Source of the DNA: Myxococcales bacterium
Lineage (GTDB): Bacteria > Myxococcota_A > UBA9042
NCBI GenBank assembly: GCA_037441385.1
Contig: JBBISH010000152.1
Location: forward strand, 1-13,480
Length of the DNA: 13,480 nt
Direction of reading: 5' to 3'
Made by a program: the position numbers and the translations under genes. A model generated the notes under the pieces. It saw nothing but the letters and a program-made list of their open reading frames with translations, did not search any database and was not told where the DNA came from. The stretch's first letter is position 1. The number at the start of each line of letters is the position of its first letter. Of this stretch, positions 2,824 to 13,480 are shown one piece after another.

Positions 2824-2995
2824 GCGCCTCGCTGCGCAACGGCCCCGCGGGTCGCGCCGGCCACCCCGCGTGGCTGCAGGCCGGGATGCAGCCTGATCCA
2901 TGTCCAACGTCAGCGGTTCATACGAACCCCGTCTGATTCGCGCCTGTACGGCTTCTCTGACCCGGTCTGCAACCGGCGAGAATCAGGCGGGGACC

Positions 2996-3038
2996 CCGGT
3001 TCGGGCCCGAAGAATTGCCCGAGTTTTCGATCCGAGTC
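2996..3038 (+). repeat. Intergenic element, copy A (candidate promoter/operator)
   Basis: 38/43 identical, ungapped, to 7094..7136. Contains the perfect palindrome TTCGGGCCCGAA (3000..3011). Ends 36 nt before the ATG at 3075. Confidence 0.8.
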
Positions 3039-3074
3039 GGACGGAACTGGTAGTAGAGGTCTGGGGGGAACCAT

Positions 3075-6000
3075 ATGCAACGTGCCCAATTTGAGGGGCC
3101 GCATCTCCAAGCGGCCGCACAAGACGAATCCGCAGGAGCCGTCCACACCGTCGCGCCGCGCGCTCTGGGGCTCCTGCCCGCGGCGACCCCCGCGTACGGC
3201 TCACGCCGCCGGGTTCGCCAACGGCCGCAACCCCAAACGAGCTTGAGATTTGGCGTGCTAGCGCTGGGCGTGGCCATACTGCTGTTCGGCGGTTGCAGCG
3301 ACCAGCCCAAGGCAACCAACACCAGCACCGGCGCTGCGGTGGATAGCAGTGTGGTCGATAGCGATGACGCCGCCGGCGCGGAAGACGCTAGCGCGATCGA
3401 AGTGGACGCTGCCAGCACGGATATCGCCGTGGCCACCGACGCAGAGGACTCGGCACCTGCAGACAGCGACAGCTCGACGGGCACCGATGCGACGCCGCAA
3501 GAGGACACGCCGATTGATAGCCAGGACGATCAAGCGATTGCAGAGGAAGCCGGTCAGGACACCGCCGACGCTGTGCCGGACACGGCCGTGGAGCCAGATA
3601 CTGCAGCGGGCGAGGTCTTGGACGACGCGGACAGCCAGGCGGACGTCGATGCGGGCCCGGCGGATGCAGCGGCCGAGGACGCCGACGCGGGCGATGCCGG
3701 TTCCGCAGACGCCGCCGACACTGTAGACGCCGCCGACACTGCGGACGCCGCAGCCGGCGATGCGGACGGTGCTGGACCGGGCGATGACGCGACCAGCAAA
3801 GACAGCGGGCCCGACGACCCCTGCAGTTGCGGCGCGGCGTGCAACGGCAAGGCGTGCAACGACGGCAGTCTATGTACCACCGACGACAAGTGTTCCGCTG
3901 GGTCGTGCGCCGGCACGCCGGTGGTCTGCGCAAACTCGGGCCCGTGCACGGTGGGCCAGTGCGAGATCGCCACGGGCAGCTGCCAAATTGTCAGCGCCAA
4001 AGACGGCTTGGCCTGCGACGACGGCAAGGTGTGCACCACCGGCGACGCCTGCAGCGCGGGCACCTGCGCGGGCAAGGCCCAAGGCTGCGACGACGGCATC
4101 GACTGCACGTTTGACACCTGCAACGGCAGCGGTTGCGTGCACTTGCTCTCGACCAAGCCGTGCGACGACGGCGACGCCTGCACCACCGGCGACCTGTGCG
4201 CCAAGGGCGCTTGCTCGGGCTTGCCGATCTTGTGCGTAGACGGCAGTCCCTGCACGGCCGACGGCTGCGACCCGGCCAAGGGCTGTGTGTTCGTGGCGAT
4301 GGTCGGCGTGGCGTGCTCGGACGGCAGCAAATGCACCACCGACGACCTGTGCAGCGGCGGCAAGTGCGTAGGCGGCCCGCCTCTGAATTGCGACGACGGC
4401 AACCCCTGCACCGCCGACACGTGCAGCCCCACCGCGGGCTGCAACCACGAGGCCGCGGCGGGCGCGTGCAAAGTGGACGCCAGCGTGGGCACTTGCGTGG
4501 CCGGGGCGTGCTGTGTCCCGCAGTGCAGCGGCAAGGCGTGCGGGCCCGATGGCTGCGGCGGCGTCTGCGGGGCGTGCGCCGCCGGCCAAACCTGCCAGCC
4601 GGATGGCACGTGCCTGGTCGACGGCTGTGCCGGCATCTCGTACCAGGGCTGCTGCGACGCCGGAGTGATCAAGTGGTGCGAAGGCGGCCTGGCCAAATCC
4701 CTCACCTGCGCCAACGCCGCGCCGGCATGCGGCTGGGACGCCGCCAACCAGTTCTACAACTGCGTCAAAGTGGCGTCGGTCGACCCCAGTGGCCTCAACG
4801 CCTACGGCTGCCCCGGCGCTACCTGCAAGGCCGCCGCATTCACCGGCTGCTGCGCCGGCCACGTCTGCGAGTACGACAGCTGCGGCAAGAAGGGCGCGCA
4901 GGTTCAGTTCTGCGCCTTTGGCTGCGACGCGGCCACGCAAAAGTGCTATGCCGACCCGTGCCAGGGCGTGCCGGCCAGTGGCGTGTGCGCGGTGGACGGC
5001 GCGTCGTACAGCTACTGCGCCGCCGGCTCGGACGGCTCGAGCGCTCAAATCCACACCGAGGCCTGCAAGCCGTACGAAACCTGCAAGGAAGTTGGCGGCA
5101 TCACCAGTTGCGCCCTCAAGGCTGGCGCGTGCGAGCCCGGCACCGCACAGTGCACTGGGGCCGACGAGTACAGCGTCTGCGACGACAAGGGCGTACCCAC
5201 CAAGTACGCCTGCCCCGGCTGCAAGACCCACTACCTTGGCACGAGTTGCCAAAAGGCCATTGAAACCACCGTGTACACGGCCACCTTTGTGTACGACTAC
5301 AAAGTGCCGGCCGGCGACCTGTCGGATTGGAGCGCTTCGGTCGCCAGCGCACCGTTGGCTTTTGCGGCGGTCTATTCGATGCACAAAGATGCCTCGGGAA
5401 CTACGCTGAGCCTGCTGGACTCGACCTACACCGACGAGCAAGGCAAGTTCTCGATCTTGGTGGCGAAAAATCCCGCGAAAGAGGACTTTGTGGCGGTAAT
5501 GGCGGCGCGGGCCAACGGCAGCCAGCAAATCGTGCTGGGCGTGGGCAACGCCGACGTGCCGGCCGGCGAAAATCAGGTCAGCAACCCCGTGCCCGCCGAC
5601 ACGTCGCACCTGTGGTCGTGGTCCGTCCCGTCGTCGAACTGGGGGACGAGCGACTCGTGGTCGATTGGCATCGCCAACGGCTCGGGCGCCGCGCGGATCT
5701 TCTCGATCATGAACGAGGTGTACGGAAAGTCCCAGCAGATCACCGGCAAGGCCGGCAAGTCCGTGGTCGCCTGGCTACACTATGGTTCGACTTGGACGTG
5801 CGGTGCGTGCTTTGGCCCGTGGAACGCCCAAGTGAACAACACCGTTTTTGACTCGCAGCTGTGGTTTGGCGCCAGCGACGCCGACGAGGCCTACTGGTCC
5901 GACGCCGTGACCGCCCACGAGATGGGCCACTGGGCGATGGCCTCGTACGGCACGTCGCCCAACGAGGGCGGCACCCACATGCTGGGCGTGCCGACCTTCT

Positions 6001-6509
6001 CGGGCCAAGCCTGGTCCGAGGGCTTTGCCACCTGGCACAGCAGCCTGGTCCGCAACAGCCCGGTATACTTCGACAAACAGGACGGCACCTTCTTCTGGTT
6101 CAACATCGACAAAGCGGTGTACAGTGGCGGTGGCCCGCTGATCGAGCCGGATCCCCAAGGCGACCTGCTGCAAAAAATGGACGAAAATCGCGTCGCGGCC
6201 ATCGTTTGGGCGCTCACCGACACCACGACGGTGCCGTACGGCGCGGCAGTCAACAACGTGCTGTTCCAGGCGCTGACCGGCCCGCACATGAATACGGCGC
6301 CCTTCCCGCGCGGCTACAAGCGCCACGTGTGGACGCTGGACACGAGCAACTACCCCCCAGTATTCAAGGATGTGGTCGAGACCAGCGAGTCGGCGCCGAT
6401 GGTGGCCGATTTCTTGGACGCACTGGCATGCCTTGGGGTCAAGTCCACCAAGTTGCAGGCCGCGGTGCAGACCTACCCATTCCCAGTTGCCGCCCCCTTG
6501 TGCCCCTAG
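3075..6509 (+). CDS. Cys-rich lipoprotein with C-terminal gluzincin-like zinc metallopeptidase domain
   Basis: Purine-rich GGGGGGAA precedes the ATG. Hydrophobic stretch ending in lipobox-like LLFGGC. Long Asp/Ala-rich linker, CDDGxxCTxxDxC repeats and a CVPQCSGKACGPDGCGGVCGAC module. HEMGH at 5916..5930 with downstream WSEGFA (Glu codon 6018..6020). The start is uncertain; TTG at 3243 would give a normal-length signal peptide. Confidence 0.88.
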   Translation: MQRAQFEGPHLQAAAQDESAGAVHTVAPRALGLLPAATPAYGSRRRVRQRPQPQTSLRFGVLALGVAILLFGGCSDQPKATNTSTGAAVDSSVVDSDDAAGAEDASAIEVDAASTDIAVATDAEDSAPADSDSSTGTDATPQEDTPIDSQDDQAIAEEAGQDTADAVPDTAVEPDTAAGEVLDDADSQADVDAGPADAAAEDADAGDAGSADAADTVDAADTADAAAGDADGAGPGDDATSKDSGPDDPCSCGAACNGKACNDGSLCTTDDKCSAGSCAGTPVVCANSGPCTVGQCEIATGSCQIVSAKDGLACDDGKVCTTGDACSAGTCAGKAQGCDDGIDCTFDTCNGSGCVHLLSTKPCDDGDACTTGDLCAKGACSGLPILCVDGSPCTADGCDPAKGCVFVAMVGVACSDGSKCTTDDLCSGGKCVGGPPLNCDDGNPCTADTCSPTAGCNHEAAAGACKVDASVGTCVAGACCVPQCSGKACGPDGCGGVCGACAAGQTCQPDGTCLVDGCAGISYQGCCDAGVIKWCEGGLAKSLTCANAAPACGWDAANQFYNCVKVASVDPSGLNAYGCPGATCKAAAFTGCCAGHVCEYDSCGKKGAQVQFCAFGCDAATQKCYADPCQGVPASGVCAVDGASYSYCAAGSDGSSAQIHTEACKPYETCKEVGGITSCALKAGACEPGTAQCTGADEYSVCDDKGVPTKYACPGCKTHYLGTSCQKAIETTVYTATFVYDYKVPAGDLSDWSASVASAPLAFAAVYSMHKDASGTTLSLLDSTYTDEQGKFSILVAKNPAKEDFVAVMAARANGSQQIVLGVGNADVPAGENQVSNPVPADTSHLWSWSVPSSNWGTSDSWSIGIANGSGAARIFSIMNEVYGKSQQITGKAGKSVVAWLHYGSTWTCGACFGPWNAQVNNTVFDSQLWFGASDADEAYWSDAVTAHEMGHWAMASYGTSPNEGGTHMLGVPTFSGQAWSEGFATWHSSLVRNSPVYFDKQDGTFFWFNIDKAVYSGGGPLIEPDPQGDLLQKMDENRVAAIVWALTDTTTVPYGAAVNNVLFQALTGPHMNTAPFPRGYKRHVWTLDTSNYPPVFKDVVETSESAPMVADFLDALACLGVKSTKLQAAVQTYPFPVAAPLCP

Positions 6510-6535: not shown

Positions 6536-7036
6536 ATGTCGAAAGTATTGGTGATTCTAGCCGTCGTCGTCACTGGGTGGGCAAGTTGGCTGGCGACGGC
6601 CCCCGAGGCTGCGGCCACCCCTGCCAAAAGCCCGCTCAAGGTCGCCCTGACGGGCCCAGAGAAGGTGGCGGTGGGCGAGACCATCGCGGTCGTGCTGACC
6701 ATCGAGCGAATGGCGTTCCAGAACTTGGAGGTTCAATGGCAGGTCGCGCTGCCGGCGGGCGCGCGCGCGGTACCGGGCGAGCCGCAAGCTGGGGTGTTGC
6801 CGGCGGGTGCAAGGCCCAACCTGGTGCAGACTCTGCACTTGATGGTGGATGAGCTGCCCAAAGACGATCTGGTGGTCACGGTGCGGATGGCCGGCAATGG
6901 CATGGGGCTGCAGAGCAAGGCGACCTATCGCTTTGGCCGGACAGCACCTGTGGGGCCGCGACCGAGCCCGGTACCGGTGCCTGGGAAGGTGAACGGCAAG
7001 AAGATTGGTGCCACGATTCCGCTGCCGGCGCGCTAG
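6536..7036 (+). CDS. Small secreted protein (166 aa), probable Ig-like beta-sandwich
   Basis: Strong RBS GAGGAGG before ATG 6536, 26 nt after the peptidase stop. N-terminus MSKVLVILAVVVTGWASWLATAPEAAA looks like a signal peptide. Alternating hydrophobic beta-strand pattern (LKVALTGP, IAVVLTIE, VQWQVALP, LVVTVRM). Pro/Lys-rich tail. Confidence 0.85.
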   Translation: MSKVLVILAVVVTGWASWLATAPEAAATPAKSPLKVALTGPEKVAVGETIAVVLTIERMAFQNLEVQWQVALPAGARAVPGEPQAGVLPAGARPNLVQTLHLMVDELPKDDLVVTVRMAGNGMGLQSKATYRFGRTAPVGPRPSPVPVPGKVNGKKIGATIPLPAR

Positions 7037-7093
7037 CGCCACCAAAGGCGGGCGCGTCCGACGTGGTCGACGGCGCGCTCTGGGATGCGAACA

Positions 7094-7136
7094 CCGGTTC
7101 GGACCCGAAGAATCGCCGGAGTTTTCGAGCCGACTC
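7094..7136 (+). repeat. Intergenic element, copy B
   Basis: 38/43 identical to 2996..3038, same orientation. TTCGG-AC-CCGAA at 7098..7109. Lies between convergent stop codons (7036 and 7181). Confidence 0.8.
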
Positions 7137-7149
7137 AAGCGGATTCCGT

Positions 7150-7173
7150 ATTACTGACCGAATGTTCAGTAAT
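7150..7173. promoter_or_regulatory. Inverted repeat ATTACTGA-N8-TCAGTAAT (operator-like; weak hairpin alternative)
   Basis: Perfect 8-bp arms at 7150..7157 and 7166..7173, AT-rich in a GC-rich context. Function is inferred only. Confidence 0.45.
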
Positions 7174-7180
7174 TGGTCGT

Positions 7181-8449
7181 CTAACTCGCTGCCCGGGCGG
7201 TTGCGTCCTTGGCCAGGCGGTAACCCTTGCCGTGAACGCTCTCGATGGTGTCGCGCGGTATTTCGGCGTCGGCCAAGTCGTCGCGCAAACGCTGGAGCAG
7301 CGCTTGCAGGCGGATGTGCGCCGACTGCCCCTGGTAGCCCAGAGCCGCCGCCAGGTCGGCGCGACTCGCTACGCCGGGGTGGGCCGCCGCCAGGGCCAGG
7401 ATCAATTTGGCGCGATCGCCTTCTAGGAAGATGGACTTGCCGCCAGTCGGGGAGCCCACTGCGAGTTCCGCGGCAGCCACGCGCCGCTGGGCCAGGACCT
7501 GCTCTGCGTCCGCACACTTGCGCAAGTAGCGGCCGGGCTCGCCGTCCAACATGCGGGGCTGACCGGCCTCGCTCCAGTCGCTCCAAGCCAAGCCGCTGCG
7601 CAGCAATTCCAGCTCCGCCTGCGGCGCCAGGTCCGCGCCGGCCGTTTTTCCTGGCTGCCAATTCGGCGGCAGCTGCGCCAGGGTCCCAGACTTGCGAAGA
7701 TCGCGAACAGCGCGTTCCACTGCCGGCATCCCGACTTGCGCGAGGTAGCGGGACAGCAGTTGCGCCTGCTCGGCCAGAGCATCGGGAGCGTCCTTGCGCA
7801 CGGGCGAGGTGACGGCCGTGGCCAACTGGCCGACCACGCTGGGATGGCCGCCAGCGGCGCTCAACATCGCAGTGCCCCAGGAAGGCAAGTGCTGCAACCC
7901 CCGATCGGAACTCAAGGCGTCTCGGTAGCTGGCAAGGTCGTCGGCGATGCGAAGGTGGACGCTGGGGATCTGCGCAACGGGGACCAGCAACTCGTTGCGG
8001 CAGCGCAGAGCCAACGCCGAGCTGTCGTCCAGCCGCCACCGACTGCACAGGTCATTCAGCGAGATCGTGGCGGTCATCGCCACCCAGTGCCCCCCATCCG
8101 CCGTCTCGGCAAACAGCTTGTTGATGCTGGAACTGGCCTGCCTGCCGTCCATATGATCCACGTCGTCGATCAGGATGCACGAGGGCTCGGCGGGCATTGG
8201 CACGCCGGCGGGACTCCGGCGACCGCTGGCACGGAAGACCGGCCGCCCCTGTTTCGCCAGCTCGCGCTCAAGCCAGTACAACAGGCTGGATTTTCCGATG
8301 CCGCGTCCGCCAAATGCGAGCAGGCGCAACCCATCGCCAGCCGAGACCCGGGCCAGTTCGGCCTCGACAAAATCCGGAAAAGCGCAATAGGGCGGCTGCA
8401 GGCTCGGCCGCTGCTCCTGCTTGCCTGGCGACGATTCACCCGCACTCAT
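7181..8449 (-). CDS. STAND-like P-loop ATPase with C-terminal OmpR/PhoB-type winged-helix DNA-binding domain
   Basis: RBS GGAGG 5 nt before the ATG. Walker A GGRGIGKS (aa 47-54), Walker B ILIDDVD, STAND-type GxP motif AAGGHP. C-terminal ~85 aa (7438..7184) SRADLAAALG...LQALLQRLRDDL...IESVHGKGYRL matches the Trans_reg_C pattern. No receiver domain seen. Confidence 0.85.
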   Translation of the reverse strand: MSAGESSPGKQEQRPSLQPPYCAFPDFVEAELARVSAGDGLRLLAFGGRGIGKSSLLYWLERELAKQGRPVFRASGRRSPAGVPMPAEPSCILIDDVDHMDGRQASSSINKLFAETADGGHWVAMTATISLNDLCSRWRLDDSSALALRCRNELLVPVAQIPSVHLRIADDLASYRDALSSDRGLQHLPSWGTAMLSAAGGHPSVVGQLATAVTSPVRKDAPDALAEQAQLLSRYLAQVGMPAVERAVRDLRKSGTLAQLPPNWQPGKTAGADLAPQAELELLRSGLAWSDWSEAGQPRMLDGEPGRYLRKCADAEQVLAQRRVAAAELAVGSPTGGKSIFLEGDRAKLILALAAAHPGVASRADLAAALGYQGQSAHIRLQALLQRLRDDLADAEIPRDTIESVHGKGYRLAKDATARAAS

Positions 8450-8464
8450 CTTTGCCTCCGTGCG

Positions 8465-11400
8465 TCAAAGGTGACGCGTATAGGCACGAACATAGGCCTG
8501 ACAAAGCTCGCTGGATAGGGCGTAGGTCAGCTGCTCGCTTTGGGGAAGGATTTGCCTGGCAATCAGGCCGGCCTGCCGCAGCGTTTGCAGCGTGAAGTCC
8601 AAGTCCCCCTGCGCAGTCCCCGGCTTGTCCCCGGCCACGGCGTTGATCAACTGCCCGTCGGGCAGCGGCCCGTGCTCGGCCAGACTGAGCAACACGTCGC
8701 GCGCGATCGGAAGCAAAGGCGCCGGAACCTCGTTGCGCCTGAGCAGGAAGGCCGCCTCGTCTTGCAGAACGTGTCGGAGGGCCGGTCCCACGTCGTCGTC
8801 GGTGTAGCGCAAGCTTGGACCGTTGCGTGCAGACGCGATGCGCCACAGCTTGTCGGCCAGCAGTCCGGTCCAATAGGGGTCGCCGCCGGTCACCTCGAAG
8901 ACGCGCGTCGCCACTGTACGCGGAACGTCCAGGTCCGACCGTGACCAACCCAGCTTGGCGGCGCGCAGCAGCGCCGTGGTTTCGGGCTGCAAGAAGGGCT
9001 GCATCTCGACCTGCCTGGCATCGTTGCGCAACGCCTTCCTCAATGGCTCCGACTTCAGCGACTCGGCCGCAGCCGACGGTCCGACCAGGACCAACGTGCA
9101 GCTGGACATGGCCCGACAGGTGGCGATGAACTGCAGAAATCCTTTTGTTTCCGCCGGATCCGATGCACAGGCCTTGGCAAGACGCACAGCCTCGTCCAGT
9201 ACGATCAGGACGCGCCGGCCCCGCAGGTGCTTTAGCCAGGCCTCGACCTTGTCCGCTTGGGGTGGCTTCAGGTCGGGCAGTCGCTCGGCAAATGCCGCCA
9301 CGAGGCGTGGTTCGCACTGCGACCAGCTCGCATCCAGGCATTCCAGGTAGACTCCGCGCGCCTCGGGCGCGTACTTCGCCTCGAATGCGGTGTGGAAGCG
9401 ATGAGCGAGCGAGGTCTTGCCAAACTTCAGGGCGCCCTTGAGAAAGACGAGCGAGCCCAGACCCGTCGCGTCCGGCGTGGCCAGCGCGGCCAAGCCAAAC
9501 AACTCGCCAAGCTCGTTTTCGCGGCCGTAGAAGCGCTCGTCGCGGCGCACCGGCTCGTTCACCACGTAGGGATTCTCTAGGCTTAATCCCCGGAGCGGGT
9601 TGTTGCTGCGCGGCGGTAGATCGCGCTCCAAGTCGCGGTCGCGTTCCAGGGGCCCAAGCGCGCGCCAGACGAAGTCCAAGGCCCCGATTTTGGCCACAAC
9701 ACGGTCGATCAACCGGGTGTCGTTGCAGTCCAGTAGCAGGCGGATCACGCCCACGCGCGGATTCAGGCGCCGCGCCGACACGTCGATGATGTCGATCTGG
9801 GCCTGGCGAAAGTGCCCCAGGATCTCGAACAGCGCGCCCACCCGGTTCGAGGTTTCCATGACCACATACTGGCTCACCGCGGCGCGCTCGACCGTTTCGA
9901 TCTTGCAGGCGTCTTTGGCGCAATGCGGCGGCCGGTGTTCAGCCCAGCGGTGCAGGACAAGCTCGCCGTCTTCTAGCGTGTAGCCGATGGGGTCAGACGC
10001 TCGCGGCCGGCACAGCCTGCAGACGCGGCGCCTTGTGTACTTGTCGCGCAGTTCTTCCGGCATGATCAGGTCGCGAACCAGCACCCGGCTGCGGCCGATC
10101 AGCTCCAGGATTCGTTCTGCATTGGCTTTGGTGGCACCGATGGCCCCAAGATCGACGCCGTGGGCCGACGCTCCCGACTGCACCGCCAGCCAAATCCCAA
10201 TGCGGTGCAGCCAAAGGCGCGAAGGAACCGCTCCCAGCAACGGCAATCGGCCGCTAGCGGAGTCCCGCACGGCCTGCCGCAACGCCAAGTCGACCATGTC
10301 GTCGATTTGGTCCAGGCGGGGCGGAAAATCCTCGGTGCCCTGCAACTGCTGGTGCACCCAGCACCGCCCGGCCTCGATGCGAAGCGGCTGCAGGGCCTGA
10401 CGGGCGGCTTCGCGCATGCGCCTGACTACGGTGTCGCCCACCTTGCTCTCCCAGCCGGCGGGCAAAACGTTGAACTCCGAGTACTCTGTCGCCTCGTGCC
10501 GAAGGATCTGCACCACGTCGCCGGACTGAAGGGGGTCCAGCGGGCCGAGCAACAACGATTGGCCGGCGCGCACAACCGTCGCCCCGCGCACAAAGCACGC
10601 GAGCTGTTCGTGGACGTCGAGCGCGAACTCCAGGACACAAGCCCCAGCGCGCAGCCGGTGCTCCTTGCGTGTCGGCGTGAGGACGCGCAAGGCCGTCGAT
10701 GACGCAATTGGCCGCAATTCATCCGTAATTTCGTCAAGCGACACGGGTGCAGCCGGGGTGGACGAATCTCGGACGACCAGGCGAAGCGGAATCTCAAGGC
10801 CACCGACATCGACCGCGGTGTGCACGGCTCGGTACCCCGTTCGGCCTGGCGCTGCGAAGTGACGGAAGCCATCGCGCTTGGGCTCATGCCGTTCGTGCAG
10901 TTGACCAAGTGCGGCATAGGCGTCGGCAAATTGCGCCACAGTTGCCGTAACAAAGCCGGATCCACGCAGAGTTCGACTCCACACAGCCGGCGGCAACGGG
11001 TCCAGCGCCGCGTGGATCGATGCCAAGTGCCGCCACTGCCAGGTCCATTCCAGGCTGCTGCTCAGCGCACTCCGGACGCGGGCCACGCCGTCGGCCACGG
11101 CGCCACCTTCGGCCACCAGCGCACGCATGTATCTGGACAGTTCTGTGCCGCGCGTTTGCGGGTTTTCGGCATGGCGCTTGGGCTGATCCACAAGCAAATA
11201 GCAGTCTTCTAGGTCGTTGCGCTCTTGCCACATGCCGAGCCGCCGCGCGATCGCGGCCGCGATGGGCACCATCCGGAGTTGCGGCGCCGCCTCGGTTGCG
11301 GGAACCGTTGCCCGCGGCTCAGGCACGGCGTTCTGCGGGTCCGACCGGGTCGCCGCCAGCCAGCTGCGCCGCTCACCCAGGGGATCGATGCGCCACAACT

Positions 11401-11749
11401 GTTCAAGAACAAACAGGGGCACCAGCATCGGGTGCGGCGCCAAGTCAAAGACGACGCGCGTGGCCTTTTGACTGTCGCTCGGTCCCAGTTGGCCCAGACC
11501 GGCCCGCAAGCGGACGTAGTCGGTCTGCAACTTCATCAAACTGGGCTCGTAGTGCCGAAGTTGACTGGCGAGCCACGCGGCCGGCTCGGGGCCGACTGCA
11601 ACGAGCAAGCTGGCCGCAGTCATGTGCTCCGAGCCAAAACGCGCATGCACCTCGCGAGCCAGCCCGACGAACGGGGCAAGGTCCGGGTTCTCCATCGCAA
11701 GGCGGATACACAGCATATCCGTTTGATGTTGCTGCATGAAGTCGACCAC
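8465..11749 (-). CDS. Degenerate long RelA/SpoT homolog (pseudo-HD, pseudo-SYNTH, TGS, ZFD, ACT) fused to STAND-type ATPase with C-terminal winged helix
   Basis: RSH landmarks in canonical order: IARRLGMWQERNDLED, ADAYAALGQLH, GYRAVHT, TGS (VLTP...LRAGACVLEFALDVH...LQSGDVVQIL, aa ~354-416), ZFD (CRLCRP..DPIGY..LVLHR, aa ~575-615), ACT (SNRVGALFEI...IDIIDV, aa ~627-697). Then NPYVV..FYGRENEL, Walker A GALKFGKT (9436..9413), Walker B VLIVLDE and TGGDPYW. ATG at 11737, preceded by GAGGTG, is an alternative start. Confidence 0.88.
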   Translation of the reverse strand: MVDFMQQHQTDMLCIRLAMENPDLAPFVGLAREVHARFGSEHMTAASLLVAVGPEPAAWLASQLRHYEPSLMKLQTDYVRLRAGLGQLGPSDSQKATRVVFDLAPHPMLVPLFVLEQLWRIDPLGERRSWLAATRSDPQNAVPEPRATVPATEAAPQLRMVPIAAAIARRLGMWQERNDLEDCYLLVDQPKRHAENPQTRGTELSRYMRALVAEGGAVADGVARVRSALSSSLEWTWQWRHLASIHAALDPLPPAVWSRTLRGSGFVTATVAQFADAYAALGQLHERHEPKRDGFRHFAAPGRTGYRAVHTAVDVGGLEIPLRLVVRDSSTPAAPVSLDEITDELRPIASSTALRVLTPTRKEHRLRAGACVLEFALDVHEQLACFVRGATVVRAGQSLLLGPLDPLQSGDVVQILRHEATEYSEFNVLPAGWESKVGDTVVRRMREAARQALQPLRIEAGRCWVHQQLQGTEDFPPRLDQIDDMVDLALRQAVRDSASGRLPLLGAVPSRLWLHRIGIWLAVQSGASAHGVDLGAIGATKANAERILELIGRSRVLVRDLIMPEELRDKYTRRRVCRLCRPRASDPIGYTLEDGELVLHRWAEHRPPHCAKDACKIETVERAAVSQYVVMETSNRVGALFEILGHFRQAQIDIIDVSARRLNPRVGVIRLLLDCNDTRLIDRVVAKIGALDFVWRALGPLERDRDLERDLPPRSNNPLRGLSLENPYVVNEPVRRDERFYGRENELGELFGLAALATPDATGLGSLVFLKGALKFGKTSLAHRFHTAFEAKYAPEARGVYLECLDASWSQCEPRLVAAFAERLPDLKPPQADKVEAWLKHLRGRRVLIVLDEAVRLAKACASDPAETKGFLQFIATCRAMSSCTLVLVGPSAAAESLKSEPLRKALRNDARQVEMQPFLQPETTALLRAAKLGWSRSDLDVPRTVATRVFEVTGGDPYWTGLLADKLWRIASARNGPSLRYTDDDVGPALRHVLQDEAAFLLRRNEVPAPLLPIARDVLLSLAEHGPLPDGQLINAVAGDKPGTAQGDLDFTLQTLRQAGLIARQILPQSEQLTYALSSELCQAYVRAYTRHL

Positions 11750-11846
11750 CTCGCGCGCGCCACTGCGGCTTGTGGCACCGTTGTAGTGTTCTCAACGACG
11801 GCGACCGCGTCAAGTTTGCAAAAAGTTTTTCACACTCAAATTGGAG

Positions 11847-11875
11847 TTGACATAAGTTGTATTCGGTTATATAGC
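11847..11875 (+). promoter_or_regulatory. Candidate sigma70-type promoter for the M23 gene
   Basis: Perfect TTGACA (11847..11852), 17-nt spacer, TATAGC (11870..11875). Lies in the most AT-rich patch of the window, 86 nt upstream of ATG 11962. Confidence 0.55.
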
Positions 11876-11961
11876 GTGGGTGCGGCCAGTACTTGCGGGC
11901 CGCGAGAGTGCCAGAGGCGCAAACGGCCGCGCGCCAAGGGGGCGCGGTCACCGGAGGTCCC

Positions 11962-13480
11962 ATGTTGCCCAATCGAAACGCTCGAAAACTGTGGTTCCAT
12001 AACGAAATCGCCTGGATCTTGCTGAGCACTCTGCTCCAGCTGGCCTGCACGGCGGCCAAGGACGGCGACGGGCCCGCGGCGCCCGAGCTGGCCGGCAGCG
12101 GGCAAATCGCGGGGGCTCTAAGTCAGCCGCTGCAGGCGCCGTTCGCGCCGGCCGCGGGGCCGCTGACGCCGTCGCAGTGCTTCAACGGGACGCTGACCCA
12201 CAACAGCGCGGCCCTGCAGTACGGGATCGACTACATCATGCCGATCGGCACGGATGTGCTCGCGGTTGGCCCGGGCAAGGTCGCCTTCACCAACGACACG
12301 TGCGCCAACAACCAGTCGGCCTGTGTAAAGGGTGTGGCCAACGCGACCTGCGACTGCTTCCACGGCATCGGCAACGTGGTGGTGGTCGAGCACGGGCCCG
12401 GCGACTACTCGCTGTACGCCCATCTGAACAAGGGGAGCCTGCTCGTCGCGGTGGGGCAGCAGGTGTGCACGGGCCAGGTGTTGGCCAAGTCGGGCTGGTC
12501 GGGCTGGGGCACCGGGGCGCATCTGCACTTCCAGATGCAGTCCACGGCCGGCGGCGCGACGACCTTGGCCGATGGCTACGTCAGCAAATCCTTTGACGGT
12601 TGGTATCAGCCCAGCGGCGGCCTCCAGAATCCCTGCGGCGCCCTCACATCCTACAACAATTCAACCACCTCGTGCGCCTCGGCGGTTGCGCTGCCCATCA
12701 ACCAAGTCACCAACGGCGCCGTGGCCAAGGGCGAGTGGGCCAAGTACTCGTTCAACAAGTTGGCGGGAAAGGCGTATTCGGTGCAGCTGCATCCCCTGGG
12801 CGGCGATCCGGATCTGTACGGCCACTTCGACCCGGCGGTCAGCGCCAGCAATTTTCAGCACAGTTCCGTCAACGGCGCCGGCAGCGACGACGTGATCAAG
12901 TTCAGCGCGTCTGCCGATGGGGTCTACTACATCGCGGTGCTGGGGTACTCGGCCGCAACCTACACGCTCAAGGTCGTTGAATCGGCCGGCGACGACCATG
13001 GCAACACGGCGGCTACGGCGACGCCAGTGGCACTGGGGGCGACAACCAGCGGTTCGATCGAGGTCGCGGGCGACGTCGATTTCTTCTCCTTCAAGACGGT
13101 TTCCGCCGGCTCGATCGCGGTGTCGACCTCGGGGACCACCGACACCTACTGCTACCTGATCGACGCCAATGGCAAAGTCCTGGCGGAAGACGACGACAGC
13201 GGCCCGGGTACCAACTGCCTGGCGGCAATGCCCTTGGTGCCGGCGGCCACCTATTTCGCCAAAGTACGCCACTATTCAAGCGGCTCTGGCCCGTACGCGG
13301 TGCAGGCGACGGCGACGGGTTCCGCTCCGCCCAGCTACAGCTGTCCCGGCAACTGCTCGGGCCATGGCACCTGCAACACCGCCAACGGCCTCTGCACCTG
13401 CAGCGGCGGCTACAGCGGCAGCAACTGTGCCACGCCGCCCAGCTACAGCTGTCCCGGCAACTGCTCGGGCCATGGCACCT
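11962..13480 (+). CDS. M23-family metallopeptidase lipoprotein with two PPC-like domains and EGF-like repeats, 3'-partial
   Basis: Translated by hand in frame 1; no stop to the window end, so it is absent from the ORF track. GGAGG at 11953..11957, then MLPNRNARKLWFHNEIAWILLSTLLQLAC (lipobox-like). M23 motifs THNSAALQYGID, GTDVLAVGPGKV, GNVVVVEH, YAHL and GAHLHF. PPC-like GGDPDLY...GVYYIAVLGY and DDHGNT...GDVDFF...EDDDSG. C-terminal CPGNCSGHGTC...CTCSGGYSGSNC. Confidence 0.9.
   Translation, partial: MLPNRNARKLWFHNEIAWILLSTLLQLACTAAKDGDGPAAPELAGSGQIAGALSQPLQAPFAPAAGPLTPSQCFNGTLTHNSAALQYGIDYIMPIGTDVLAVGPGKVAFTNDTCANNQSACVKGVANATCDCFHGIGNVVVVEHGPGDYSLYAHLNKGSLLVAVGQQVCTGQVLAKSGWSGWGTGAHLHFQMQSTAGGATTLADGYVSKSFDGWYQPSGGLQNPCGALTSYNNSTTSCASAVALPINQVTNGAVAKGEWAKYSFNKLAGKAYSVQLHPLGGDPDLYGHFDPAVSASNFQHSSVNGAGSDDVIKFSASADGVYYIAVLGYSAATYTLKVVESAGDDHGNTAATATPVALGATTSGSIEVAGDVDFFSFKTVSAGSIAVSTSGTTDTYCYLIDANGKVLAEDDDSGPGTNCLAAMPLVPAATYFAKVRHYSSGSGPYAVQATATGSAPPSYSCPGNCSGHGTCNTANGLCTCSGGYSGSNCATPPSYSCPGNCSGHGT
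13327..13480 (+). repeat. Exact coding direct repeat, 108-bp period (EGF-like unit)
   Basis: The 46 nt at 13327..13372 are identical to 13435..13480 (PPSYSCPGNCSGHGT). The second copy is cut by the window end. Confidence 0.9.

Follow-up and report, generated by a model that had tools for sequence, protein, structure and literature searches.

The window, a stretch of 13,480 nucleotides that makes up an entire contig of a 6.6-Mb Myxococcales genome (67% G+C), carries two adjacent genes, A and B, on its minus strand (Table 1). Protein A is a complete long RelA/SpoT homologue (RSH), with the HD, SYNTH, TGS, helical, ZFD and ACT domains in this order, joined to an ORC/Cdc6-like STAND ATPase. Gene B starts 15 nucleotides after the stop codon of gene A, behind a GGAGG sequence, and encodes a second STAND-like protein. 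An initial annotation of this DNA had described gene A as a dead RSH scaffold fused to an intact STAND ATPase and had overlooked gene B, the likely output of what is a two-gene system.

Table 1. Positions of gene A, gene B, their domains and the presumed promoter region in the window.
Feature	Position (nt)	Strand	Basis
Gene A, pseudo-RSH-STAND fusion, 1094 aa (1090 aa from the ATG at 11737)	8465..11749	-	Open reading frame, model and family comparison
Protein A, pseudo-hydrolase (HD), ~aa 1-175; none of the four metal ligands (His, His, Asp, Asp) left	11225..11749	-	Alignment and fold match; approximate boundaries
Protein A, pseudo-synthetase, ~aa 176-330; catalytic Asp and Glu and ATP-site Arg/Lys gone, guanine-site Y306 and H310 present	10760..11224	-	
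Protein A, TGS, aa 352-418; P359/H380 equivalent to E. coli RelA P411/H432, K412 and R438 equivalents gone	10496..10696	-	
Protein A, helical (AH) domain, ~aa 430-560	10070..10462	-	
Protein A, zinc-finger/RIS (ZFD), aa 570-612; ligands C577, C580, H600, C610	9914..10042	-	
Protein A, ACT/RRM, aa 625-700; N-R-x-G at 635-638	9650..9877	-	
Protein A, STAND NTPase core and helical domain, aa 724-1000	8750..9580	-	
Protein A, C-terminal winged helix of the STAND module, ~aa 1005-1094	8468..8737	-	Model and fold match
Gene B, 422 aa, STAND/AAA+-like with C-terminal OmpR/PhoB-type winged helix	7181..8449	-	
Protein B, OmpR-type winged helix, aa 326-412	7214..7474	-	Pfam Trans_reg_C, E 3.7e-5, below the curated cut-off
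A+T-richer intergenic stretch shared with a divergent M23-peptidase gene; presumed promoter region of the pair	11750..11955	.	

The frame of gene A is free of stop codons over its 1094 codons; the database copy of the protein, of 1090 residues, starts at Met5. The G+C content at third codon positions is 0.69-0.88 over the full length with no shift at the RSH/STAND junction, and the codon bias is that of the neighbouring genes. We rejected misassembly and chance read-through, since more than 100 divergent relatives have the same junction and the codon bias is even; the fusion is real, and the misassembly near position 9600 that had been named as a possible objection is ruled out. One contig of run X1 covers positions 7000-11950 unchanged, X1 being possibly the source of the window DNA and so not independent. 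Upstream of gene A (11750-11955), no site passed a sigma-70 scan and no operator repeat was found.

Several lines of evidence support the architecture of protein A. Pfam placed TGS (355-416) above its cut-off and, below cut-off and in the expected order, RelA_SpoT (271-317), ACT (631-691) and AAA_16/AAA_22/NACHT (739-929). The NCBIfam model spoT_relA matched with an E-value of 2.5e-7, and phmmer aligned the protein with E. coli RelA at three places (SYNTH, TGS and ZFD-ACT). With the AlphaFold model (64-row alignment; mean pLDDT 86, pTM 0.61), Foldseek returned RelA, SpoT and Rel at ranks 1-9 (best E 1.8e-17), followed by the archaeal STAND/ORC-type ATPases 2qen, 2v1u, 2qby and 2fna; 2qen reached a TM-score of 0.68, normalised on the target, to the ATPase part. 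By domain order and fold protein A is thus a member of the long RSH superfamily, and the long-RSH order that the initial annotation had seen in the first ~700 residues is confirmed. The STAND part has the N-terminal hhGRE motif (FYGRE, 740-744), Walker A (772-780), Walker B (D852-E853), the GxP motif of the helical domain (956-958) and a winged helix, so that the intact P-loop motifs and terminal winged helix read from the letters likewise agree with alignment and fold match. In the AlphaFold model there is no repeat sensor or effector after the C-terminal winged helix, and no toxin or nuclease domain was found in protein A or protein B.

The residues on which RSH catalysis depends have been described in earlier work. 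In RelSeq, D264 and E323 are catalytic in the synthetase and Y308 stacks on the guanine (PMC7983052); changes of E82 or D83 abolish hydrolysis, and a synthetase-dead SpoT has lost the Tyr together with the TGS His (PMC9974481). Aligned with the Rel of its own host, protein A has V50-A51 in place of HD, EQLWR in place of DRLHN, WQWR in place of GRPK, G263 at the catalytic Asp and P321 at the catalytic Glu. The motif replacements proposed in the initial annotation all fall where it had placed them except GYRAVH, which is a retention, Y306 and H310 being conserved guanine-site residues. A family motif, W-[EQ]-W-R-H, lies at residues 237-241 of the pseudo-synthetase. Judged by its residues, the RSH part of protein A is catalytically dead both as synthetase and as hydrolase: the synthetase Asp and Glu, the hydrolase metal ligands and the Glu-Asp (ED) pair that mark the Rel, RelA and SpoT enzymes are absent.

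More than 180 divergent sequences, from at least two phyla, make up the family of the RSH-STAND fusion. A full HMMER search gave 173 matches, 150 of which are listed; a word-index search was insensitive, with three matches for protein A and two real matches for the partner profile. Three clusters of the ESM Atlas (53, 87 and 63 members) combine TGS, RelA_SpoT and AAA/nSTAND1 at scores of 0.94-0.95. When the ATPase of a divergent member served as query, 91 proteins were retrieved, most of the same architecture and several source-labelled Chloroflexi or Anaerolineae; among main-clade relatives the labels are Myxococcota or Myxococcales, as is that of one partner protein. Many members are annotated in databases as GTP pyrophosphokinase, a label that their own sequences contradict.

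Conservation was counted in two alignments. The first has 114 rows, consisting of 112 listed matches of 980-1320 residues (shorter ones were omitted), the window protein and P0005. The second has 82 Chloroflexota-type rows, of which 73, of at least 1000 residues, come from the search with the divergent ATPase and nine from the HMMER list (these nine are shared with the 114). Mean pairwise identity in the 114 rows is ~25% overall and 19-27% per domain, with 37% in TGS. Within this divergence, the synthetase Asp is found in 4 rows, the Glu in 3 and both in none; the ATP-site residues, defined against the host Rel, in 8 (Arg) and 2 (Lys); the HD Asp in 6 and the full HD metal set in 3. The guanine site has kept its stacking Tyr in 105 rows, its loop His in 94 and its loop Asp in 105, the four zinc ligands are kept in 108-112, and both Walker A (G-K-[TS]-S) and Walker B (D-E) are present in 114 of 114. 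Not one of the 82 Chloroflexota-type rows has the synthetase Asp and Glu. Their G-loop has Asp in 82, Lys in 63, Asn in 81, Tyr in 81 and His in 78, the TGS His is present in 78, and their HD domain has all four metal ligands in 69 and the catalytic ED pair in none. With its ligand-binding residues selectively kept, protein A is more than the scaffold it had been called.

New conservation has appeared at the former ATP site, where Trp is found in 104, Glu in 78, a second Trp in 101 and His in 92 of the 114 rows. Together with the HD metal set of the Chloroflexota-type members, this could point to an active enzyme of changed chemistry, in which a W-E-W-R-H-x-A-S motif or the metal-holding HD domain would act on another nucleotide or on RNA. 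We consider such an enzyme highly improbable: no metal-binding carboxylate pair is left in the synthetase fold, the main clade is without the HD Asp, and the window copy is without any HD ligand.

The window copy is more eroded than most members of the family, with all HD ligands gone and His (H297) in place of the loop Asp. It lacks the HD histidines that are kept in 93 and 89 of the 114 rows and it sits on a long terminal branch, as might be expected of a copy that is decaying, whatever the rest of the family does. Against decay, to which we give hardly any credence, both frames and the partner are intact, the codon bias matches that of the neighbours, and Walker, zinc, TGS and G-loop residues are present.

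The losses differ between the two groups of the family. Eight of nine Chloroflexota-type members match the host Rel with E-values of 1e-47 to 1e-77, the main clade only with 1e-2 to 1e-10, and the pattern reads as a gradient of loss in which the synthetase would have gone first, then the ED pair and then the HD metal site. A quick tree of the RSH part (29 fusion rows) places ten canonical enzymes on one side of a branch where long branches meet, with a Shimodaira-Hasegawa-like approximate likelihood-ratio (SH-aLRT) support of 98. A quick STAND tree of 63 rows separates the main clade from the Chloroflexota-type members and places non-RSH STANDs on the Chloroflexota side, these rows having mostly been picked, in a quick search, for closeness to that side. 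Between them, the two quick trees are compatible with either one fusion event or two.

Protein B has a Walker A motif at residues 47-54, a D-D Walker B and a GxP motif at 201-203. Its model (pLDDT 72) matches AAA+ ATPases, with 2qen giving the highest query-normalised TM-score among the rows shown (0.41), and its ESM Atlas neighbours, mostly from Chloroflexota and candidate phyla, combine STAND with Trans_reg_C (top matches 0.96). A gene B homologue starts between -23 and +15 nucleotides from the gene A stop in 13 of 13 distinct loci, which are the window, seven genomes of the phylum, L024 and four metagenome contigs; two of the 13 partner genes are cut by contig ends. The genome of L024 belongs to the sampled phylum of the host and so gives no evidence of a further phylum. 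The metagenome search gave 21 pattern matches, of which seven were family members and 14 were dropped; L025, L028 and L035 duplicate L033, L021 and L019 and were not counted. Retrieval of related loci gave one genome locus and none in metagenomes. The copy of the L033 gene in L025 (L025:3-1852) has two overlapping frames inside the ATPase, an assembly error or a frameshift.

Walker A is intact in the partners of 11 of the 13 loci, and D-E is found at Walker B in none of the ten aligned partners. Most full-length partner copies end in an OmpR-type winged helix; apart from the one in the window, Pfam detected Trans_reg_C in 6 of 11 scanned partner reading frames, all below cut-off and one of them the duplicate L025. 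On these features, protein B, which is STAND-like with a winged helix of the DNA-binding type, is likely the output of the pair. Complex prediction with residues 712-1090 of protein A and protein B gave a score of 0.36, compared with 0.00 for the best control. Of 157 solved complexes 116 reach this mark, as do 2 of 215 mismatches, and the range from the mark up to 0.60 holds 18 of the 157 solved complexes and both mismatches. One of the three runs scored 0.01, contact agreement was at least 59% with a partner pLDDT of at least 72, and part of the score may come from likeness to solved AAA+ assemblies. The prediction lends weak support to an association of A with B.

The reading that we favour, tentatively and at close to an even chance, has the pair sense guanine nucleotides or the alarmone (p)ppGpp, perhaps reading uncharged tRNA as well, and so drive a paired-STAND transcription switch. 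The dead RSH would still hold a guanine nucleotide where the acceptor was formerly bound, be it (p)ppGpp or one from the GTP/GDP pool, and in Chloroflexota-type members binding might occur also in the metal-holding, non-hydrolysing HD pocket. A further input may be uncharged tRNA, with the TGS histidine reading its 3' CCA end. A ligand-driven open/closed movement of the kind that regulates Rel enzymes would be relayed through ACT to the STAND module, which would then exchange ADP for ATP. Protein A would assemble with protein B through their AAA+ domains, as in ORC/Cdc6-type ATPases, and the clustered winged helices of B would bind DNA and alter transcription. We counted in favour of a sensor the selective retention of the guanine loop, the TGS His, the zinc ligands and the Walker motifs at ~25% identity, as well as the lack of a toxin or nuclease domain in either protein, with one TIR domain among 74 flanking reading frames. 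That the RSH chassis serves as the input of an ATPase switch, as first proposed from the letters, is consistent with all of these data.

Several observations weigh against the sensor reading. The first concerns the switch: no conserved arginine finger was seen in protein A, the best column having Arg in 37 of 114 rows (with the expected position judged by eye), and a ring-like active assembly would therefore not be assured. The second concerns the ligand, since a structural role, rather than ligand binding, could account for the conservation of the Tyr, the His and the zinc ligands, and the nucleotide pocket of the window copy, without HD ligands, with H297 for the loop Asp and without the G-loop Lys, may be degenerate. 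The third concerns the partner, whose count over 13 loci takes in no Chloroflexota-type member, whose Walker A is eroded in L022 and L023, and which in four loci (L020-L023) has no Pfam match at all. To these are added the ribosome contacts and the patchy distribution described below.

In E. coli RelA, P411 and H432 hold the CCA end of the tRNA (PMC4974054, PMC7058999), and R629, R670 and D675 matter at the ribosome (PMC7058999, PMC4974054). The window copy has P359, H380 and N635 at the positions of P411, H432 and D675, and Thr, Phe, Gly and Val at those of K412, R438, R629 and R670. These last four are absent from most sampled members as well, R438 and R670 being variable also among the ten canonical controls, and this poor retention weakens the tRNA and ribosome arm of the sensor reading. 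It bears equally on the alternative that protein A is a ribosome-docked sensor of uncharged tRNA, which would sit on starved ribosomes like RelA and signal through the STAND pair with guanine nucleotides not being its input. Such a sensor would agree with the retention of all C-terminal RSH domains in order, with TGS as the best-conserved domain, and with the P411 and H432 equivalents in 85 and 76 of the 114 rows. Apart from the missing contacts, however, ACT of RelA sits in a cavity of the 50S subunit, where a C-terminal ATPase of 390 residues would be hard to fit, and the conserved G-loop would be left unexplained. Ribosome docking as the sole input is, in our judgement, improbable.

In the reading as a nucleotide sensor, the ordinary Rel of the host would make the alarmone and the A-B pair would read it. 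The host has such an enzyme on another contig, a separate, intact canonical Rel of 754 residues, whose presence the initial annotation had left to be checked; gene A as the main Rel of the host was rejected accordingly. Each of the five other carriers tested has a RelA_SpoT match of its own, separate from gene A and above cut-off (the match only, not the motifs), and we counted this co-occurrence for the sensor reading. A canonical RSH gene in 6 of 6 carriers checked would also be expected of a pseudoenzyme that regulates the host Rel through competition over ligands, ribosomes or dimer partners and whose availability is set by the ATPase pair. Nevertheless, Rel is near-universal (11 of 14 control genomes), so that co-occurrence says little, and a Rel regulator leaves the DNA-binding partner unexplained; we regard it as very unlikely. 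Other long RSHs were seen alongside: four family f52 genomes (L011-L014) have one with a dead HD motif and an intact synthetase (RelA-like), with a second RSH match present, and in family f34 (L015:976-3156 and L016:601-2820) the HD ligands are intact and the synthetase is eroded (hydrolase-only type).

Full-length matches to gene A were found in 8 of 401 genomes of the phylum, host included, in a survey that scored two candidates per genome over incomplete genomes. None was found in 28 other genomes of the host's family, seven of them of its genus, whereas 4 of 15 genomes of family f24 have one. Three of these f24 genomes share the genes that flank the pair, which suggests stable inheritance. 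The patchy occurrence (8/401 and 0/28), the high divergence and the changing neighbours, which count against the sensor reading, are also typical of defence systems. Among plant nucleotide-binding leucine-rich-repeat receptors (NLRs), those with integrated decoys are encoded by paired genes and carry a dead copy of a host protein as bait, a possible parallel to A-B.

By analogy, the dead RSH could be the bait of an anti-phage guard: phage inhibitors of RelA/SpoT would bind it and trip the STAND pair, and B would bind DNA, arresting the cell or inducing defence genes. Both RelA and SpoT are targets of the T7 portal protein Gp8, which binds and inhibits them, in RelA by way of the C-terminal domains (PMC13483052), and two-gene STAND operons have been predicted to be counter-invader systems (PMC8195603). 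The patchy distribution and fast evolution would fit, as would a plasmid of Acinetobacter ursingii (L077:2089-9854) on which hsdR is followed by a fusion of a type I methylase, a specificity module and a related STAND and then by an overlapping second ATPase gene, a layout like that of the cassette with another N-terminal module. However, a decoy should resemble the host target, and protein A has ~22% identity to the host Rel; it has kept residues of the small-ligand pocket and not the ribosome-facing surface, and neither A nor B has an effector domain. PADLOC, searched with nine A/B proteins, gave weak P-loop matches (E 5e-4 or worse) for three and none for the window pair, on which account a known defence system was rejected. 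The flanks are mostly housekeeping, membrane and secreted proteins (without a background rate), the shared flanks in f24 suggest stable inheritance, and plasmids, phages and viral contigs yielded no full-length copy. Among the alternatives to the sensor a guard of this kind ranks first, although we consider it unlikely.

Cargo of a mobile element was rejected as well, as no record of at least 80% coverage was found on plasmids (three of three queries) or phages; viral contigs gave nothing in one search and, in another, partial RSH or STAND matches in 22 loci only. One viral-contig protein of 1081 residues (L076:407-3652) has a related STAND in its middle and, near its end, a motif that we take to be phosphoribosyltransferase-like. 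The 74 flanking reading frames came from 12 other loci by heuristic calling, which is poor on three low-GC contigs. By Pfam they encode mostly metabolic, membrane and secreted proteins; besides the TIR protein there were one kinase-ATPase-TPR protein, one transposase and, in three loci, sigma-54-type activators. In two loci a sigma-54-type activator gene lies divergent, just upstream of gene A (L020:12259-13281 and L024:265-1554). The pair of one genome has genes for serine dehydratase subunits and for a seryl-tRNA synthetase-like protein upstream of it, in divergent orientation (L023:4184-6963). In the window, large secreted-type proteins flank the pair (1-2823, 3075-6509, 6557-7036 and 11956-13480), among them proteins with Cys-rich Dictyostelium-type repeats, an HExxH protein and the divergent M23 peptidase with PPC and EGF domains; L020 likewise has PPC or peptidase genes downstream. 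An intergenic repeat of 135 bp (2918-3052, with a partial copy at 7091-7136) has 369 blastn matches on 143 contigs of the host genome, 262 of them of at least 110 nucleotides, of which 141 are at least 90% identical. It folds as two long hairpin arms (-57.5 kcal/mol, with no shuffle control) and is like a miniature inverted-repeat transposable element (MITE) or a repetitive extragenic palindromic (REP) sequence.

Conserved in more than 180 divergent sequences, a doubly dead full-length RSH would amount to a receptor class within the superfamily, and the sensor reading, if true, would link (p)ppGpp or uncharged tRNA directly to a transcription factor. Steps of the change are still visible in the family: Chloroflexota-type members have a metal-binding HD pocket that lacks the catalytic pair, and the losses of the main clade go further. 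If the bait reading were true instead, the pair would be a bacterial counterpart of the integrated-decoy paired NLRs. In a wider and more doubtful claim, which we put forward as a possibility, the pair would represent a branch of the stringent response in which a long RSH, as receptor of alarmone and uncharged tRNA, switches a dedicated DNA-binding factor through a hetero-oligomeric STAND, without RNA polymerase or DksA as target; it would also exemplify a modular cassette whose paired STANDs take dead housekeeping enzymes (RSH, type I methylase) as interchangeable sensors.

In the literature searched, from which subscription journals and bioRxiv supplements were outside the scope, the RSH-STAND fusion was not found, in agreement with the initial annotation, which knew of no characterised protein with this architecture. 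By term search, the architecture is absent from the available sections of PMC3153485, PMC7229694, PMC7159879, PMC13581612 and bioRxiv 10.64898/2026.10.19.760177; those of PMC3153485 and PMC7229694 contain no AAA or ATPase terms. The supplements of PMC13581612 contain no RelA or TGS terms, and those of PMC8195603, file 13 excepted, hold one canonical Rel as a neighbour and no fusion.

The closest systems are known from both halves of the protein. The long RSHs Rel, RelA[hS], SpoT and A. baumannii SpoT[Hs] share with protein A the six-domain order, the fold, the zinc ligands, the G-loop Tyr and His and the TGS His (PMC3153485, PMC9974481). The long RSHs described in these sources keep at least one catalytic activity, their pseudo-domains leaving the other active, whereas protein A is, by its residues, dead at both sites, carries a C-terminal STAND fusion and a dedicated partner gene, and is accessory to a canonical Rel. 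With the nSTAND2 two-gene system, which is predicted only (PMC8195603), the pair shares two adjacent STAND genes, found in 13 of 13 loci, and a second gene that tends to erode and bears the output domain. It differs in that the output is an OmpR-type winged helix rather than GT4 or HEPN, that the input is a whole pseudo-RSH, that there is no conserved arginine finger, and that the partner Walker A is still intact in most loci. PF20702 (nSTAND2) matched none of 24 scanned members at E 0.01, nSTAND1 was weak in six, and one Chloroflexota-type member matches nSTAND2 below cut-off. The Avs and bNACHT proteins share the STAND switch (PMC13581612); in the loci seen, A-B lacks their N-terminal effector, repeat sensor and defence-island context. 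The archaeal MJ/PH/SSO-type STANDs and ORC1/Cdc6 proteins (2qen, 2fna, 2qby) share the AAA+ core, the GxP helical domain and the winged helix, whereas protein A is bacterial and has a large N-terminal RSH module and a transcription-factor-like partner. MalT and AfsR/SARP are ligand-gated STAND switches with a DNA-binding output, the winged helix of AfsR being of the OmpR type. In contrast to these, A-B has no TPR sensor or BTAD, its sensor and DNA-binding parts lie on two STAND proteins, and its putative sensor is N-terminal. In function, the pair would come closest to a STAND transcription switch whose parts are divided between two proteins. By descent protein A is a long RSH and a STAND, but it lacks the catalytic residues of the RSH enzymes, and the nSTAND2 profile, the arginine finger and an effector are missing. 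With its partner it forms a real two-gene family, not described before, which belongs to the paired-STAND kind and is surprising in its input module.

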